Shown in pieces: positions 508 through 44,567 of a stretch of DNA of 64,000 bases. Each line of letters begins with the position of its first letter. Positions within the stretch are counted from its first letter, which is position 1. Under the pieces are notes generated by a model. That model did not search any database, had not been told where the DNA came from, and saw only the letters and a program-made list of their open reading frames with translations. The DNA lies in assembly GCA_964106915.2 (NCBI GenBank), contig OZ066917.1; one strand, written 5' to 3'. This DNA comes from Podarcis gaigeae. Lineage: Eukaryota. Made by a program: the position numbers and the translations under genes.

Positions 508-1594
508 TACATTTGCACAATGCCACCAAGGAAGAAAGGAAGGAAGGAAAGTTCACTTCAAAAGAAAGTCACTCATTGAGAATAGTCAGTAGTAAGAGTA
601 GTAAGCTGCCCTTTGTGACCTTGCTCAGTCAGTTCTTATCATATAGATACAGTGATAAAGTAGCATCGGTAGTGCAGTGATAGAGGTATTTTGATAGAAC
701 CTATTTTGCCTCTCCTGGGTAAATATGCAGATTGGAATAAAACTACCATTCAGATTTTGCACTTCTCTGAATGTTGCTGAACAGTTCTTAGCACAAAAAA
801 TATACCCAAATGCCTTTAGAAATGTGTGCATGTGTACATTTAGAAATGTGTACTGTGTTTGTTTTCTAAAAAAAAAGTAATTTACAGGTCAACGCAAATG
901 GAATGGACTTATCGATACACGTGAAACTGACATGAATCAGAAACAGATTGGTCCACCTTCCCCAGGCAGAGGTATGTGGTTGTTGAATTCAACTCCCATT
1001 TTGCCCGGCAGCAGAGCGTGGTGGGGTGGGGAATGCTATAAGGACAATAAGGAAGAGATGCTTGCTGCTGTTCCATCCCAAAGAGCCAGATTACATGTTT
1101 AACATGAACAGCTGCCCCTGAGTTGTGTACTGTTTGCATTCAAACATTTTAGGATGTTCCATCATCTCATGGGAAACATGCATCCTATTAAATGTATGGG
1201 AAATGTTGGAAGCAGATTTGCGCTAATGGGTCCATGCAAAAAAGTTTACTGAATTCTTTCGGCAAGATCCGTTTTATGCCTTATTATCGCTTGATCACTA
1301 ATGAGAAAGGCAATAAATTACCAGCCAAATGCAAGAGAGTTCAGCTATGAGGAGCCTGGGAAGATTGGCTTCATAACTGTGCAAACCAGTGAGAAATCTG
1401 GTTTTTGGGGGGGTTGGCCCTGAACAGGTCCCAGTCCAGAAAACTGTCCGAAGCTGCTGCAACCCACAAATTGAAACAATGAGTAAATATGGGGTAAAAT
1501 AAACTCAGTTCTAGTTCTTGGGCCACCTCTAGAAATTCAGCCCAGCTCTAGGTGGCAGTAGCTAAAAGAAAGAAATAAACATGAAAAGTCATCT

Positions 1595-4500
1595 GTTGTT
1601 GTTGTTGTTTAGTCGTTTAGTCGTGTCCGACTCTTCGTGACCCCATGGACCAGAGAACGCCAGGCACCTCTGTCCTCCACTGCCTCCCGCAGTTTGCTCA
1701 AACTCATGCTGGTAACCTCGAAAACACTATCCAACCATCTCGTCCTCTGCCGTCCCCTTCTCCTTGTGCCCTCCATCTTTCCCAACATCAGGGTCTTCTC
1801 CAGGGAGTCTTCTCTTCTCATGAGGTGGCCAAAGTACTGGAGCCTCAGCTTCACAATCTGTCCTTCCAGTGAGCACTCAGGGTTGATTTCCTTCAGTATG
1901 GAGAGGTTTGATCTTCTTGCAGTCCATGGGACTCTCAAGAGTCTCCTCCAGCACCATAATTCAAAAGCATCAATTCTTCGGCGATCAGCCTTCTTTATGA
2001 TCCAGCTCTCACTTCCATACATCACTACTGGGAAAACCATAGCTTTAACTATACGAACCTTTGTTGGCAAGGTGATGTCTCTACTTCTCAAGATGCTGTC
2101 TAGGCCTGTCATTGCCCTTCTCCCAAGAAGCAGGCGTCTTTTAATTTCGTGGCTGCTGTCACCATCTGCAGTGATCATTGAGCCCAAGAAAGTAAAATCT
2201 CTCACTACCTCCATTTCTTCCCCTTCTATTTGCCAGGAGGTGATGGGACCAGTGGCCATGATCTTCGTTTTTTTGATGTTGAGCTTCAGGCCATATTTTG
2301 CGCTCTCCTCTTTCACCCTCATTAAAAGGTTCTTTAATTCCTCCTCACTTTCTGCCATCAAGGTTGTGTCATCTGCATATCTGAGGTTGTTGATATTTCT
2401 TCCGGCAATCTTAATTCCGGCTAGGGATTCATCCAGCCCAGCCTTTCGCATGATGAATTCTGCATATAAGTTAAATAAGCAGGGAGACAAAATACAGCCT
2501 TGTCGTACTCCTTTCCCAATTTTGAACCAATCAGTTGTTCCATATCCAGTTCTAACTGTAGCTTCTTGTCCCACATAGAGATTTCTCAGGAGACAGATGA
2601 GGTGATCTGGCACTCCCATTTCTTTAAGAACTTGCCATAGTTTGCCGTGGTCGACACAGTCAAAAGCTTTTGCATAGTCAATGAAGCAGAAGTAGATGTC
2701 TTTCTGGAACTCTCTAGCTTTCTCCATAATCCAGCGCATGTTTGCAATTTGGTCTCTGGTTCCTCTGCCTCTTCTAAATCCAGTTTGCACTTCTGGGAGT
2801 TCTCGGTCCACATACTGCTTGAGCCTTCCTTGTAGAATTTTAAGCATAACCTTGCTAGCGTGTGAAATGAGTGCAATTGTGCGGTAGTTGGAGCATTCTT
2901 TGGCACTGCCCTTCTTTGGGATTGGGATGTAGACTGATCTTCTCCAATCCTCTGGCCACTGCTGAGTTTTCCAAACTTGCTGGCATATTGAGTGTAGCAC
3001 CTTAACAGCATCATCTTTTAAAATTTTAAATAGTTCAGCTGGAATGCCATCACTTCCACTGGCCTTGTTATTTGCAGTGCTTTCTAAGGCCCATTTGACT
3101 TCACTTTCCAGGATGTCTGGCTCAAGGTCAGCAACCACACTACCTGGGGTATACGAGACATCCATTTCTTTCTGGTATAATTCCTCTGTGTATTCTTGCC
3201 ACCTCTTCTTGATGTCTTCTGCTTCTGTTAGGTCCTTTCCACTTTTGTCCTTTATTGTGGAAATCTTTGTACGAAATGTTCCTTTCATATCTCCAATTTT
3301 CTTGAACAGATCTCTGGTTCTTCCCATTCTATTGCTTTCCTCTATTTCTTTGCATTGCTCGTTTAAGAAGGTCTTCTTGTCTCTCCTTGCTATTCTTTGG
3401 AAATCTGCATTCAATTTCCTGTATCTTCCACCATCTCCCTCGCATTTTGCTTGCCTTCTCTCCCCCGCTATTTGTAAGGCCTCATTGGACAGCCACTTTG
3501 CTTTCTTGCATTTCCTTTTCATTGGGATGGTTTTCGTTGCTGCCTCCTGTATAATGTTACGAGCCTCCATCCATAGTTCTTCAGGCATTCTGTCCACCAA
3601 ATCTAAATCCTTAAACCTGTTCCTCACTTCCACTGTGTATTCATAAGGGATTTGACTTAGATTGTATCTTACCGGCCCAGTGGTTTTTCCTACTTTCTTC
3701 AGTTTAAGCTTGAATTTTGCTATAAGAAGCTGATGATCTGAGCCACAGTCAGCTCCAGGTCTTGTTTTTGCTGACTGTATAGAGCTTCTCCATCTTTGGC
3801 TGCAGAGAATATAATCAATCTGATTTCGATGCTGCCCATCTGGTGATGTCCATGTGTAGAGTCGTCTCTTGTGTTGCTGGAAAAGCGTGTTTGTGATGAC
3901 CAGCTTGTTCTCTTGACAGAACTCTATTAGCCTTTGCCCTGCTTCGTTTTGATCTCCAAGGCCAAACTTGCCAGTTGTTCCTTTTATCTCTTGACTCCCT
4001 ACTTTAGCATTCCAATCCCCTATAATGAGAAGAACATCCTTCTTTGGTGTCACTTCTATAAGGTCTTGTAAGTCTTCATAGAATTGGTCAATTTCAGTTT
4101 CTTCAGCACAAGTAGTTGGTGCATAAACTTGGATTACTGTGATGTTAAAAGGTCTGCCTTGGATTCGTATCGAGATCATTCTATCATTTTTGAGATTGCA
4201 TCCCAGTACAGCTTTCACCACTCTTTTGTTGACTATGAGGGCCACTCCATTTCTTTTATGGGTTTCTTGCCCACAGTAGTAGATATGATGGTCATCCGAA
4301 CTGAATTCACCCATTCCCGTCCATTTTAGTTCACTGATGCCCAGGATGTCAATATTTATTCTTGCCATCTCATTTTTGACCACCTCCAACTTACCCAGGT
4401 TCATGGTTCTTACATTCCAGGTTCCTATGCAATATTTTTCTTTACAGCATTGGACTTTCCTTTTGCTTCCAGGCATATCCGCAACTGAGCGTCCTTTCGG

Positions 4501-4820
4501 CTTTGGCCCAGCCGCTTCATCAGCTCTGGATCTACTTGTACTTGCCCTCCGCTCTTCCCCAGTAGCATGTTGGACGCCTTCCGACCTGAGGGGCTCATCT
4601 TCCAGCGTCATATCTTTTATATGCCTGTTGTCTTTGTCCATGGAGTTTTCTTGGCAGGGATACTGGAGTGGCTTGCCGGTTCCTCCTCCAGGTGGATCAC
4701 GTTTGGTCAAAACTCTCCACTATGACCTGTTCATCTTGGGTGCCCTGCTCGGCATAGTTCATAGCTTCTCTGAGTTCTTCAAGCCCCTTCGCCACGGCAA
4801 GGCAGTGATCCATGAAGGGG
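1595..4820 (-). mobile_element. Full-length BovB (RTE-clade) non-LTR retrotransposon
   Basis: 3226 bp between identical 12-bp direct repeats GAAAAGTCATCT (1583-1594 and 4821-4832). (CAA)n tail on the minus strand directly after ...GAAGAGTCGGACACGACTAAACGACTAA. Single long ORF; 5' UTR resembles BovB (GGATCACTGCCTTG...GGGCACCCAAGA). Confidence 0.97.
1609..4641 (-). CDS. BovB ORF: APE-like endonuclease + reverse transcriptase (1010 aa from first ATG at 4641; frame open from a TTG at 4710, 1033 aa)
   Basis: Endonuclease motifs IGTWNVRT, ILGISE, IQVYAPT, IIGDWNAKVG, QIDYIL, SDHQLL. RT motifs IDYAKAFDCV, GVRQGCILSPCLFNLY, LRYADD, FTFLGS. RTE C-terminus IDAFELWCWRRLLRVPWT...LQYFGHLMRR. No stops or frameshifts. 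Confidence 0.96.
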   Translation of the reverse strand: MDKDNRHIKDMTLEDEPLRSEGVQHATGEERRASTSRSRADEAAGPKPKGRSVADMPGSKRKVQCCKEKYCIGTWNVRTMNLGKLEVVKNEMARINIDILGISELKWTGMGEFSSDDHHIYYCGQETHKRNGVALIVNKRVVKAVLGCNLKNDRMISIRIQGRPFNITVIQVYAPTTCAEETEIDQFYEDLQDLIEVTPKKDVLLIIGDWNAKVGSQEIKGTTGKFGLGDQNEAGQRLIEFCQENKLVITNTLFQQHKRRLYTWTSPDGQHRNQIDYILCSQRWRSSIQSAKTRPGADCGSDHQLLIAKFKLKLKKVGKTTGPVRYNLSQIPYEYTVEVRNRFKDLDLVDRMPEELWMEARNIIQEAATKTIPMKRKCKKAKWLSNEALQIAGERRQAKCEGDGGRYRKLNADFQRIARRDKKTFLNEQCKEIEESNRMGRTRDLFKKIGDMKGTFRTKISTIKDKSGKDLTEAEDIKKRWQEYTEELYQKEMDVSYTPGSVVADLEPDILESEVKWALESTANNKASGSDGIPAELFKILKDDAVKVLHSICQQVWKTQQWPEDWRRSVYIPIPKKGSAKECSNYRTIALISHASKVMLKILQGRLKQYVDRELPEVQTGFRRGRGTRDQIANMRWIMEKAREFQKDIYFCFIDYAKAFDCVDHGKLWQVLKEMGVPDHLICLLRNLYVGQEATVRTGYGTTDWFKIGKGVRQGCILSPCLFNLYAEFIMRKAGLDESLAGIKIAGRNINNLRYADDTTLMAESEEELKNLLMRVKEESAKYGLKLNIKKTKIMATGPITSWQIEGEEMEVVRDFTFLGSMITADGDSSHEIKRRLLLGRRAMTGLDSILRSRDITLPTKVRIVKAMVFPVVMYGSESWIIKKADRRRIDAFELWCWRRLLRVPWTARRSNLSILKEINPECSLEGQIVKLRLQYFGHLMRREDSLEKTLMLGKMEGTRRRGRQRTRWLDSVFEVTSMSLSKLREAVEDRGAWRSLVHGVTKSRTRLND

Positions 4821-5426
4821 GAAAAGTCATCTACTCTAAGTAAATATTTAAAGAATCGGCTGCTATTTAGACAAAAAGGAAGGAAATAGTTCTGGAATCA
4901 GTAAGCAGATTCTGAACAATTTCACTACTGTTGTCTCTTGTTTAGAGTGGAATATTAACCAATTAATATACTTTTCTGTGCCACTAAGCTGTTTTTACTT
5001 GTGAGTGCTGAGATGTATCTTACTTTGCAGTTAAAACGGAAATTGCACCTCATCTAAAAGGCACTTAAATGAACCACAATATGAACCACCTCATTATGTT
5101 TCTGGGTAACCACCAATTCCTCAGCCCCAAAGACAAAATAAAAAACTCCCTCCACCTTCATTACTAAATATTCTTCCACTTAAAAGAGAATTATTGGAGA
5201 AAAATTCAGACATTGCTGCAGATGTGGGGACACCTCAGGCATTTAACTTCAAGGCGAGCCCCAACTTCTTGGTTTGAATGTTACCTCAGAATCGCAAAAC
5301 ATGGAAGTGCTTCCTCTCTCTACCTTGGCTGAGGTAATAGTTGATCTGGATAAAGCAAAAACTATTAAGAAGATGAGAAGAATATCTTTCTAGTCTCCAA
5401 TAGGCAGACAAAGATACATAGAATTA

Positions 5427-6607
5427 CCGTATTTTTCCCTCTATAACACGCAGATTTTTTCTCCTAAAAAAGAAGGGGAAATGTCTGTGCGTGTTATAGA
5501 ACGAATGTGTGGTCCCTGGAGCCGAAAAAGCAGGCAAAAATCAAATCGCGCGTCTCCTAGAAGGGAAACTTGAAAAGAGGAAGTGGCTGCTTTCCTGCAT
5601 TCTGCCTCAGGGTCTTACTGCCCACCCTCCTCTGTTTCGTTGCTGTGTTTGCTGAAACAGAACAAAGAGCAGGGAAAGCCCCTCCCCTCCAGGCAAGCAG
5701 AGGGGAATTCCTCTCTGTGCTCCGGTGCTGCTGGGGGAGAGGGGGGGGAGGGGGAGGGAGAGAGAGGGGGGGAGGGAGGGAGAGAGAGAGATATGGCTGG
5801 CTTGGGTGGGGGAAAACTTTTGCCTTTCTTTCCTCCCTCCGTTAAATCCCTCTCCTGCATTCTTAGCCAGCTGCTTCTCTGCACACCCCTCTCATGTCCC
5901 TTCTTTGTTTTTCCTTCGCTCCCCACTTAAAATGTGGTTACAAAGCATAGATCCACATGGATCCTCAGGATCTTTGCATTGGGTCACCCCAAATTCACCA
6001 TCAGATCACATAGCATGTCCATGGCTACAGCCTGCCCCCCCAAAATCACGCACCCACTGTTGCCTGGGGCTGCAATGGTGCAAAAACGTGGTTAAAAAGC
6101 ATGGATCCACATGGATCCTCAGGATCTTTGCATTGGGTCACCCCAAATTCACCATCAGATCACATAGCATGTCCATGGCTACAGCCTGCACCAAAAAAAT
6201 CACACACCCACTGTTGCCTGGGGCTGCAATGGTGCAAAAATGAGGTTACAAAGCATGGATCCACAGGGATTCTCAGGATCTTTGCATTGGGTCACCCCAA
6301 ATTCACCATCAAATCACATAGCATGTCCATGGCTACAGCCTGCACCAAAAAAATCACGCACCCACTGTTGCCTGGGGCTGCAATGGTGCAAAAACATGGT
6401 TACAAAGCATGGATCCACAGGAATTCTCAGGATTTTTGCATTGGGTCACCCCAAATTCACCATCAGATCACATGTCTGTGGCCACAGCATGAAGCCCAAA
6501 AATGATACATCCACTGTTTCATTCAGAATGTTTTTCCCCTTGTTTTCCTCCTCTAAAAGCGATGTGCGTGTTATGATCAGGTGCGTGTTATAGAGCGAAA
6601 AATACGG
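5427..6607. mobile_element. Non-autonomous Tc1/mariner element (Tc2/Kanga-like CCGTATTT termini) with internal tandem array
   Basis: TA|CCGTATTTTTCCCTCTATAACACGCA ... TGCGTGTTATAGAGCGAAAAATACGG|TA: ~26-bp TIR with one mismatch, TA duplication, no transposase ORF. Confidence 0.88.
5934..6472. repeat. 154-bp tandem repeat, ~3.5 copies, inside the MITE
   Basis: GGTTA(C/A)AAAGCAT(A/G)GATCCACA... recurs at 5936, 6090, 6244 and 6398 (exact period 154). Confidence 0.93.
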
Positions 6608-19807: not shown

Positions 19808-21301
19808 CAGTGGTGCCTCGCAAGACGAAATTAATTCGTTCCGCAAGTCTTTTCGTCTTGCGAGTTTTTCGTCTTGCGAAGCACGGTTTCCCATAGGAAT
19901 GCATTGAAAATCAATCAATGCGTTCCTATGGAAACCGCCTTCAGACCAGGTCCGGGGACAGTCTGTCCCCCGACCTCTTCTGAAGGCCGGCGGGGGGGGG
20001 AAGTATTTGTTTTCCCCCGCCTGCCTTCCCGGGACAGCGGAGACTTCTCCGCTGTCCTGGGGTGATTTTAAAATGCTGGCGGGCGCCAGCGAAGCCTTCG
20101 CTGCCGTCCCCCAGCATTTTAAAAACCCCGGGACAGCGGAGGACTTCTCCGCTGTCCGGGGCGATCTTAAAATGCTGGCGGGCGGCAGCGCTGCCGCCCG
20201 CCAGCATTTTAAAATCGCCCCGGGACAGCGGATGAATTCTCCGCTGTCCCGGGGCGATTTAAAAGCCCCCGGGAAGGCAGGCATGGGGGACAAAGACTTT
20301 TGCCCCCCTCCAGCCTTCAGAAGAGGTCCAGAGGGCTCTCCAAGCTGCGGATAGCAGCCTGCTGCCCCGCGCGAGGGGCGCTCTGCTTAAGAGCGCCCCT
20401 CGCGCGGGGCAGCAGGCTGCTATCCGCAGCCTAGGCGGGAACTCTTCTGAAGGCTGGCGGGGGAGAAGGGCTTTCCTCCCCACCGCCAGCCTTCAGAACA
20501 GCCTTCTGAATGTTGGCGGTGGGGAGGAAAACCTTCCTCCCACCGCAAGTCTTCAAGACAGGTCCGGGAACAGAGGAGAAGCGCTGCGCACCTTCCCTTC
20601 TGTTCCCGGGCCTGTCCTGAAGTCTTGCGGTGGGAGGAGGGCTTTCCTCCCCACCGCTAACATGCAGAATGCTGTTCTGAATGTTGGCGGTGGGGAGGAA
20701 AAACCCTCCTCCCACCGCAAGCCCCGGGAACAGAGGAGAAGCGCTGCGCACCTTCCCCTCTGTTCCCGGACCTGTCCTGAAGGCTTGCGGTGGGAGGAGG
20801 GCTTTCCTCCCCACCACCAACATGCAGAATGCTGTTCTGAATGTTGGCGGTGGGGAGGAAAAACCCTCCTCCCACCGCAAGCCCCGGGAACAGAGGAGAA
20901 GCGCTGCGCACCTTCCCCTCTGTTCCCGGACCTGTCCTGAAGGCTTGCGGTGGGAGGAGGGCTTTCCTCCCCACCGCCAACATGCAGAAGGCTGTTCTGA
21001 ATGTTGGCGGTGGGGAGGAAAAAGCCTCCTCCCACCGCAAGCCCCGGGAACAGAGGAGAAGCGCTGCGCACCTTCCCCTCTGTTCCCGGACCTCCCACCG
21101 CAAGCCTTAGGACAGGTCCGGGAACAGAGGAGAAGGCGCGCTGCGCTTCCCCGCTGTCCCCAGAGATTTCCCTATGGGCTTTCGTCTTGCGAAGCAAGCC
21201 CATAGGGAAATTTGTCTTGCGAAGCCGCTAAAAAATCGGAAAACCCTTTCGTCTTGCGGGTTTTTCGTTTAGCGAGGCATTCGTCTTGCGGGGCACCACT
21301 G
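19808..21301. mobile_element. Large Tigger/pogo-like non-autonomous element (1494 bp) with a GC-rich hairpin and tandem-repeat core
   Basis: TA|CAGTGGTGCCTCGCAAGACGAA ... TTCGTCTTGCGGGGCACCACTG|TA; subterminal TTCGTCTTGCG repeats at both ends; no transposase. Confidence 0.9.
20500..21100. repeat. 160-bp GC-rich tandem repeat (~3.7 copies) made of short hairpins
   Basis: CATGCAGAA(T/G)GCTGTTCTGAATGTTGGCGGTGGGGAGG at 20661, 20821 and 20981; the first unit is 11 bp longer. Confidence 0.92.
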
Positions 21302-44088: not shown

Positions 44089-44567
44089 TTGTTGTTTAGT
44101 CACTGAGTTGTGTCCGACTCTTCGTGACCCCATGGACCAGAGCACGCCAGACACTCCTGTCTTCTACTGCCTCCCGCAGTTTGGTTAAACTCATGTTAGT
44201 AGCTTTGAGAACACTGTCCAACCATCTCGTCCTCTGTCGTTCCCTTCTCCTTGTGCCCTCCATCTTTCCCAACATCAGGGTCTTTTCCAGGGTCTTCTCT
44301 TCTCATGAGGTGGCCAAAGTATTGGAGCCTCAGCTTCACGATCTGTCCTTCCAGTGAGCACTCAGGGCTGATTTCCTTCAGAATGGAGAGGTTTGATCTC
44401 CTTGCAGTCCATGGGACTCTCAAGAGTCTCCTCCAGCACCAGAATTCAAAAGCATCAATTCTTCGGCAATCAGCCTTCTTTATGGTCCAGCTTTCACTTC
44501 CATACATCACTACTGGGAAAACCATAGCTTTAACTATACAGACCTTTGTCAGCAAGATGTTGTCTCT
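44089..44567 (-). mobile_element. 5'-truncated BovB copy (~480 bp)
   Basis: Colinear with the 3' end of the full-length copy (about 1602-2083); VKAMVFPVVMYGSESW...LQYFGHLMRR; 2-bp deletion frameshift near 44291; short (CAA) tail; no clear TSD. Confidence 0.95.

Follow-up and report, generated by a model that had tools for sequence, protein, structure and literature searches.

A complete, recently inserted BovB retrotransposon and its lacertid subfamily

Structure and affiliation of the BovB copy

The window, i.e., the whole 64,000-nucleotide stretch of DNA analysed, contains a BovB retrotransposon 3,226 bp in length on the minus strand; its features are listed in Table 1. The element is bounded by a perfect target site duplication (TSD) of 12 bp, the first base of which may be assigned to the tail instead, giving 11 or 12 bp. 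Within the 64-kb window the 12-mer is present at exactly two places, with no occurrence on the opposite strand, and it is not a chance repeat, since its copies flank the element at both ends and empty alleles (see below) carry a single copy.

The minus-strand frame 4719..1609 is open over 1,036 codons and, from the first ATG, encodes a protein of 1,010 aa, with an AP-type endonuclease followed by reverse transcriptase (RT); ORF1 is absent. The catalytic motifs GDWN (aa 208), IDY (aa 275), SDH (aa 301) and YADD were found, and matches to Pfam families RVT_1 (E 3e-40) and Exo_endo_phos (E 4e-16) both exceed the curated cut-offs. The mean pLDDT of the AlphaFold model is 71, and residues 1–65 are probably disordered according to prediction. 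The 5' UTR contains four upstream ATGs. The anatomy proposed in an earlier sequence-only reading, namely, a 3,226-bp element with a 5' UTR, an ORF of at least 1010 aa carrying endonuclease and RT motifs, a CAA tail and a 12-bp TSD, is borne out by the sequence and Pfam, and the length and the 1,010-aa frame agree with its description as a full-length, ORF-intact BovB.

Table 1. Features of the BovB copy, its insertion site and its own amino acid changes (positions in the window)
Feature	Position	Strand	Remarks
TSD, element 3' end, 12 bp, first base A on element strand	1583..1594	-	Single copy in empty alleles
BovB insert, 3,226 bp	1595..4820	-	
(CAA)4 microsatellite tail, 14 nt	1595..1608	-	Adjoins stop codon, no further 3' UTR
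Single ORF, 1,010 aa + stop, endonuclease and reverse transcriptase	1609..4641	-	
T881I	2000	-	T in 28 of 30 relatives with a residue there
Reverse transcriptase domain, aa 574–820, YADD at aa 755	2182..2922	-	Pfam RVT_1
A620T, RT motif QxGFR	2784	-	A in 34 of 38 relatives; V in human L1 ORF2p
E405G	3428	-	E in 25 of 38 relatives
AP-type endonuclease domain, aa 73–305, GDWN/IDY/SDH	3727..4425	-	Pfam
E60K	4464	-	CpG transition; variable N-terminus, predicted disordered
5' UTR, 179 nt	4642..4820	-	Identical 5' end at 466 genomic places; loose contig ends pile up behind 4820 in X1, X3 and X4
TSD, element 5' end, T before it on element strand	4821..4832	-	
Three-T tract, 10–12 nt upstream of first TSD base (Tn-TA target signature)	4842..4844	-	Signature as in PMC13295347

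Relatives of the protein were searched by scoring the 7,992 best candidates and taking the best 120 of 669 matches. The closest of these 120 is a UniRef cluster of Podarcis muralis, with 95% identity over 99% of the length. Among the matches listed, identity is 88–96% for P. muralis, 91% for Zootoca, 66–80% for Varanus, 74–80% for ruminants and 71% for Anolis. A quick-mode IQ-TREE tree of 39 proteins (the focal copy and 38 of the 120 listed matches) places the focal copy inside a six-row lacertid clade (SH-aLRT 100), which adjoins Varanus and ruminant-type sequences, so that the protein groups with BovB of squamates and ruminants. The host is accordingly taken to be a lacertid. The matches carry organism names rather than the designation 'BovB'; the label is based on this grouping and on the match to the family already described in P. 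muralis (PMC13295347). The length of about 3.2 kb and the short 5' UTR also agree with canonical BovB, for which a length of 3.2 kb is given (PMC6036668).

The insertion site of the focal copy has TTT at positions -12 to -10, T at -1 and A at +1. Target sites were compared at 53 of 76 loci, namely, those with a TSD of at least 9 bp and an adjoining tail. The TSD is 11–12 bp long in 40/53 loci and begins with A in 45/53; T precedes it in 40/53 and occupies positions -13, -12 and -11 in 37/53, 39/53 and 33/53 loci, respectively. Tails of the 53 copies consist of two to seven CAA units. The Tn-TA signature of P. muralis BovB comprises three T residues about 10 nt upstream of TA, with a TSD beginning with A, and the tails in that species are (CAA)2-6 (PMC13295347). 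The focal copy agrees with the Tn-TA definition and has (CAA)n in place of poly(A), both of which count towards its assignment to BovB.

Abundance, age and empty sites

The assembly searched comprises 1.51 Gb in 211 contigs. The first 44 nt of the focal copy have exact matches at 466 genomic places and the last 44 nt at 4,209; in a search with the first 600 nt, the 39 best matches apart from the focal copy each score 1,078 bits, compared with 1,083 for the focal copy itself. The 75 copies fetched were these 39 plus a further 36 that completed the set of 45 on contig C1, where every place with the exact 5' word was taken. Frames of 1,007–1,011 aa were found in 38 of the 75, encoding 35 distinct proteins. 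On C1, 32/45 places align over at least 3,100 bp, and 13/45 contain a frame no shorter than 1,000 aa; one of these 13 has a one-base deletion near its end. Scaling 13/45 to the 466 places, on the assumption that C1 is typical, gives about 135 (83–202) intact copies in the genome. Full length and an intact frame, which had appeared to set the focal copy apart, therefore do not distinguish it: the copy is not exceptional, since 466 places carry an identical 5' end and 13/45 places on C1 have an open frame.

For divergence estimates, 63 copies were aligned; the 12 of the 75 loci that are truncated, inverted or internally deleted were omitted, including L083, which carries the sequence word of T881I. 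The majority state was taken from the 40 rows with no more than 15 differences from it, referred to below as young. The focal copy differs from this majority at 4 of 3,214 bases, or 0.12% (95% interval 0.03–0.32%), a low count being favoured in its case, as the majority was built from copies close to it. The count agrees with a young copy, as the divergence check of the sequence-only reading had anticipated. The 32 near-full-length copies of C1 show 4–110 differences (median 24). Among the 40 young rows, the mean pairwise difference is 9 bases (0.28%) and the minimum is 1; no identical pair was found. At a single borrowed rate of 0.0013 per site per My, used in PMC13295347, the four changes would correspond to an age of about 1 My (0.3–2.5), which leans toward an upper value because some of them may come from an unsampled parent.

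Window positions 700–5400 were compared by alignment with contigs from four public runs, covering two samples of organism A (S1, run X1; S2, run X3), organism B (X4) and organism C (X5). No RNA dataset was among those listed as containing the flank. Single contigs in three of the four runs, namely, X3, X4 and X5, join position 1582 directly to 4821 and contain one copy of the TSD. The flank contigs of X1 end at 1575 and resume at 4821, a pattern that fits two alleles and that a small local variant would also produce; this run was not counted. The flanks differ from the window by 0.41% in X1, 0.57% in X3, 0.96% in X4 and 1.44% in X5; being closest in the two samples of organism A, they point to this organism as the likely species of the window. 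If the window derives from organism A, both alleles would probably be segregating in that species. The focal copy is recently inserted. The view that it is very young and absent elsewhere is upheld by the empty site in three other samples, one likely conspecific and two from relatives.

Mode of insertion, source copies and activity of the family

Target-primed reverse transcription (TPRT) is established LINE biology. A model of it is given in PMC13295347, and the events at the locus may be outlined accordingly. A full-length RNA from another copy would have been translated into the single endonuclease-RT protein; the endonuclease would nick the TA step about 10 nt downstream of the T tract, the CAA tail would prime reverse transcription running through to the 5' end, and the duplication of 11–12 bp would result from a second, staggered nick. 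The focal copy would afterwards have gained up to four amino acid changes and left no detectable daughters in the assembly. The locus is very probably a complete RTE-clade BovB, absent here in three related samples and likely inserted by TPRT within approximately the last million years. It would be one end product of a lacertid subfamily that has been inherited vertically and in which several source lineages are likely still active.

Changes in the ORF bear on the activity of this subfamily. Counted once per site, changes common to at least two of the 40 young rows comprise 13 silent and 9 replacement ones, and private changes comprise 18 silent, 68 replacement and 4 nonsense ones; the silent share of sites is 0.27, and the silent enrichment of shared over private changes is significant (Fisher p=0.0009). 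From the sequences, neutrality suits the private changes and filtering the shared ones, a pattern to be expected where propagation is confined to functional copies. The tree of copies consists of several small clusters rather than one star, and the silent enrichment among shared changes points to several recently replicating lineages. The family is probably active. On the other side, every pair among the 40 young rows differs by at least one base.

The same absence of an identical pair, together with the diversity of the 38 intact frames (35 distinct proteins), would suit a family that has recently become extinct, in which movement has ceased and the intact copies are left from a burst that came to its end some hundred thousand years ago. 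This reading has an appreciable, clearly minor, probability, as 5 of the 40 young copies have no private change, several young pairs differ by one base in 3.2 kb, and one haplotype that lacks the focal insertion differs by just 0.6% in its flanks. A family of BovB elements retrotransposing today is on balance the probable state, with several competing source lineages under purifying selection, about 100–200 intact copies, presence/absence alleles and L1-style 5'-inverted insertions at a notable rate. If so, the genome would be a living reservoir of the best known among horizontally transferred vertebrate retrotransposons, and target choice and host range of the RTE clade could be tested directly in a natural system already at hand.

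The focal copy had also been put forward as a possible source element. It is full-length and among the least diverged copies, with an open frame and every catalytic motif, as a master element making new insertions should be. Each of its four copy-specific changes is a replacement, an outcome with a chance of 0.29 under neutrality. Three of them occur in 0/63 aligned copies, and the fourth, E60K, at a CpG, recurs in one of the 63, a copy with 43 changes from the majority. Exact-word counts across the genome were run for two of the four changes, and the carriers fetched were 9/9 for A620T and 31/155 for T881I. The nine other places with the A620T word all have at least 26 changes from the majority; one of these old copies, L107 (152 changes), also carries E405G. 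The T881I word is present at 155 other places; the 31 fetched, mostly short older pieces, are all at least 0.8% from the majority, and A620T is absent from all six that cover position 620. As all carriers are diverged, the assembly is without any near-identical daughter of more than about 1.2 kb that carries the A620T word; shorter ones, covered by sampling, may exist. Three of the changes strike fairly conserved residues, so that the focal copy may be impaired; yet human L1 ORF2p has V at the A620 site, and the substitution may be tolerated. Daughters that predate the four changes, or that are present only in other animals, would escape detection. As no daughter with its own changes was found in the one assembly, and the four changes are all replacements, three of them at fairly conserved residues, the source reading is not supported; it was rejected for this assembly on the word counts and fetched carriers, and is in general improbable.

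Two further origins were considered. Domestication of the focal copy was rejected on the absence of the copy from relatives and the replacement nature of all four changes. Conversion from an older subfamily was considered as the origin of the four changes, since older copies share some of the letters; it is not favoured, because no neighbouring old-type letters accompany them.

Horizontal mobility had likewise been proposed, and squamates are well documented both as recipients and as donors of BovB (PMC6036668, PMC6050309, PMC9007160). Recent entry of the subfamily into the lizard lineage by horizontal transfer, or recent donation from it, would accord with this record, with deep branches of the protein tree that depart from host relationships (ruminants beside Varanus, Anolis outside) and with the alignment of ruminant-like BovB at 81% nucleotide identity over 3.1 kb. 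The last value, judged from sequence comparison, probably reflects the established transfer history of BovB. The focal copy itself nests among lacertid sequences in the quick protein tree, the closest proteins among the matches listed being those of P. muralis and Zootoca, and its non-lacertid relatives are about 80% identical; recent transfer is therefore not supported. Named non-lacertid proteins are all at most 80% identical among the best 120 of 669 matches, metagenome relatives of at least 300 bp reach only 68–83% nucleotide identity (34 of 35 loci aligned), and no pattern match to the focal BovB was found in viral contigs. A near-identical copy in a distant taxon was not found among the listed proteins and the viral and metagenome contigs, and on these searches, which gave nothing close outside lacertids, recent transfer was rejected. 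Contigs at least 99% alike are similarly common in organisms B (12,308/51,322) and C (11,520/46,267) compared with X1 (15,208/57,701), and the genome contains older copies diverged by up to about 5% and fragments at 8%, as expected from long residence. Recent transfer is thus very improbable, and vertical inheritance within lacertids is preferred.

Comparison with known elements and other BovB structures

Bov-B_PMu of P. muralis is represented by 435 copies longer than 3 kb, with 353 perfect TSDs (Nakatsuka and Ohshima 2026, PMC13295347). The family described here belongs to the same lineage (95% aa identity) and shares with it the (CAA)n tail, the A-first TSD, the Tn-TA signature and the presence of hundreds of copies longer than 3 kb (PMC13295347). 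In contrast, mean pairwise divergence is 3.0% for Bov-B_PMu copies over 3 kb (PMC13295347) and 0.28% in the youngest group here; a count of intact frames, presence/absence data and a selection test were not found in the part of PMC13295347 consulted, the Figure S3 of which may show close copies. Canonical BovB of ruminants, snakes and frogs has the same length of 3.2 kb and a single endonuclease-RT frame (PMC6036668, PMC9007160), and ruminant-type copies are 74–80% identical to the focal copy at the amino acid and about 81% at the nucleotide level. The focal copy differs in belonging to a separate lacertid branch, for which there is no sign of recent transfer, and in its (CAA)n tail, which in cattle BovB is (CTGAA)n. 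Human L1 ORF2p (PDB 8uw3, 9k6g and others) aligns with the endonuclease and RT (aa 125–878, E 2e-36); the general TPRT mechanism is the same, and 5'-inverted products are also found in lacertid BovB. Unlike human L1, BovB here has no ORF1 and no poly(A) tail, the TSD is shorter (11–12 bp in 40/53) and the target signature is different.

The single copy is ordinary, and the family context is of some value. What is new is the finding of empty sites, a very low divergence, an estimated number of intact copies and a signal of selection. What is known of the BovB mechanism has been deduced from traces left in genomes, and PMC13295347 points to assays of retrotransposition with RTE-clade LINEs as a means of evaluating it. 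Among the titles listed in a literature search that covered few subscription papers, there was neither a BovB retrotransposition assay nor a study of polymorphic BovB insertions in lacertids. A lizard in which intact, near-identical copies are numerous and sites are found both empty and filled offers natural templates and known pre-insertion targets for such an assay, and these sites may also serve as population markers in lacertid genetics.

Inverted and rearranged copies were found among the loci fetched. Three of the 45 C1 places (L147, L148 and L149) contain 5'-inverted BovB with a tail and TSD. L146 is inverted, with its left end outside the fetched DNA, and L100 and L103 contain inverted pieces of ambiguous structure, so that up to 6/45 places are inverted if the ambiguous ones are counted; L130 was grouped with the inverted set. 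L146–L149 are the same places as L079, L094, L096 and L097 on contig C1. At the inversion junction, three copies of the inverted set are short of 2.4–2.6 kb, and two copies join at element position 2594–2595, at a short match to the reversed 5' end. By analogy, these copies fit twin priming as described for L1 (PMC2912911); among the titles listed in the literature search, which covered few subscription papers, none concerned 5' inversion in BovB.

At five of the 45 C1 places (L070, L080, L087, L091 and L100), the first 18–21 nt of the element are tandemly repeated just upstream of the 5' end, which suggests repeated template jumps at the RNA 5' end. Internally deleted copies that keep both ends are L072, L083, L088, L105, L032 and L057, four of them with a TSD-like repeat of 11–13 bp; deleted RNAs or template skips may have been mobilised. 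L154, on contig C1, is a full-length BovB with an 11-bp TSD, split at position 655–659 by other DNA of about 2.7 kb. Older, 5'-truncated BovB is represented by two pieces, at window 44089-44567 (minus strand) and, just before the window, at L155:9513-9860 (plus strand), with 91.9% and 92.8% identity to the element, respectively. At L094:396-3440 (minus strand), directly adjoining an inverted BovB insertion, lies an unrelated RT frame of 1,014 aa, 28% identical to BovB over 390 aa and with no endonuclease match, which we take to be L1/Tx1-like.

The 54 longer frames of the window gave no Pfam match above the cut-off and one sub-threshold match. Two tandem arrays are present in the window, one at 5929-6473, with a 154 bp unit in 3.5 copies (94%), and the other at 20447-21093, GC-rich, with a 160 bp unit in 3.3 copies (97%). 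A short stretch at approximately 344-510, bounded by an 8-bp inverted repeat with TA ends, resembles a small DNA-transposon remnant.
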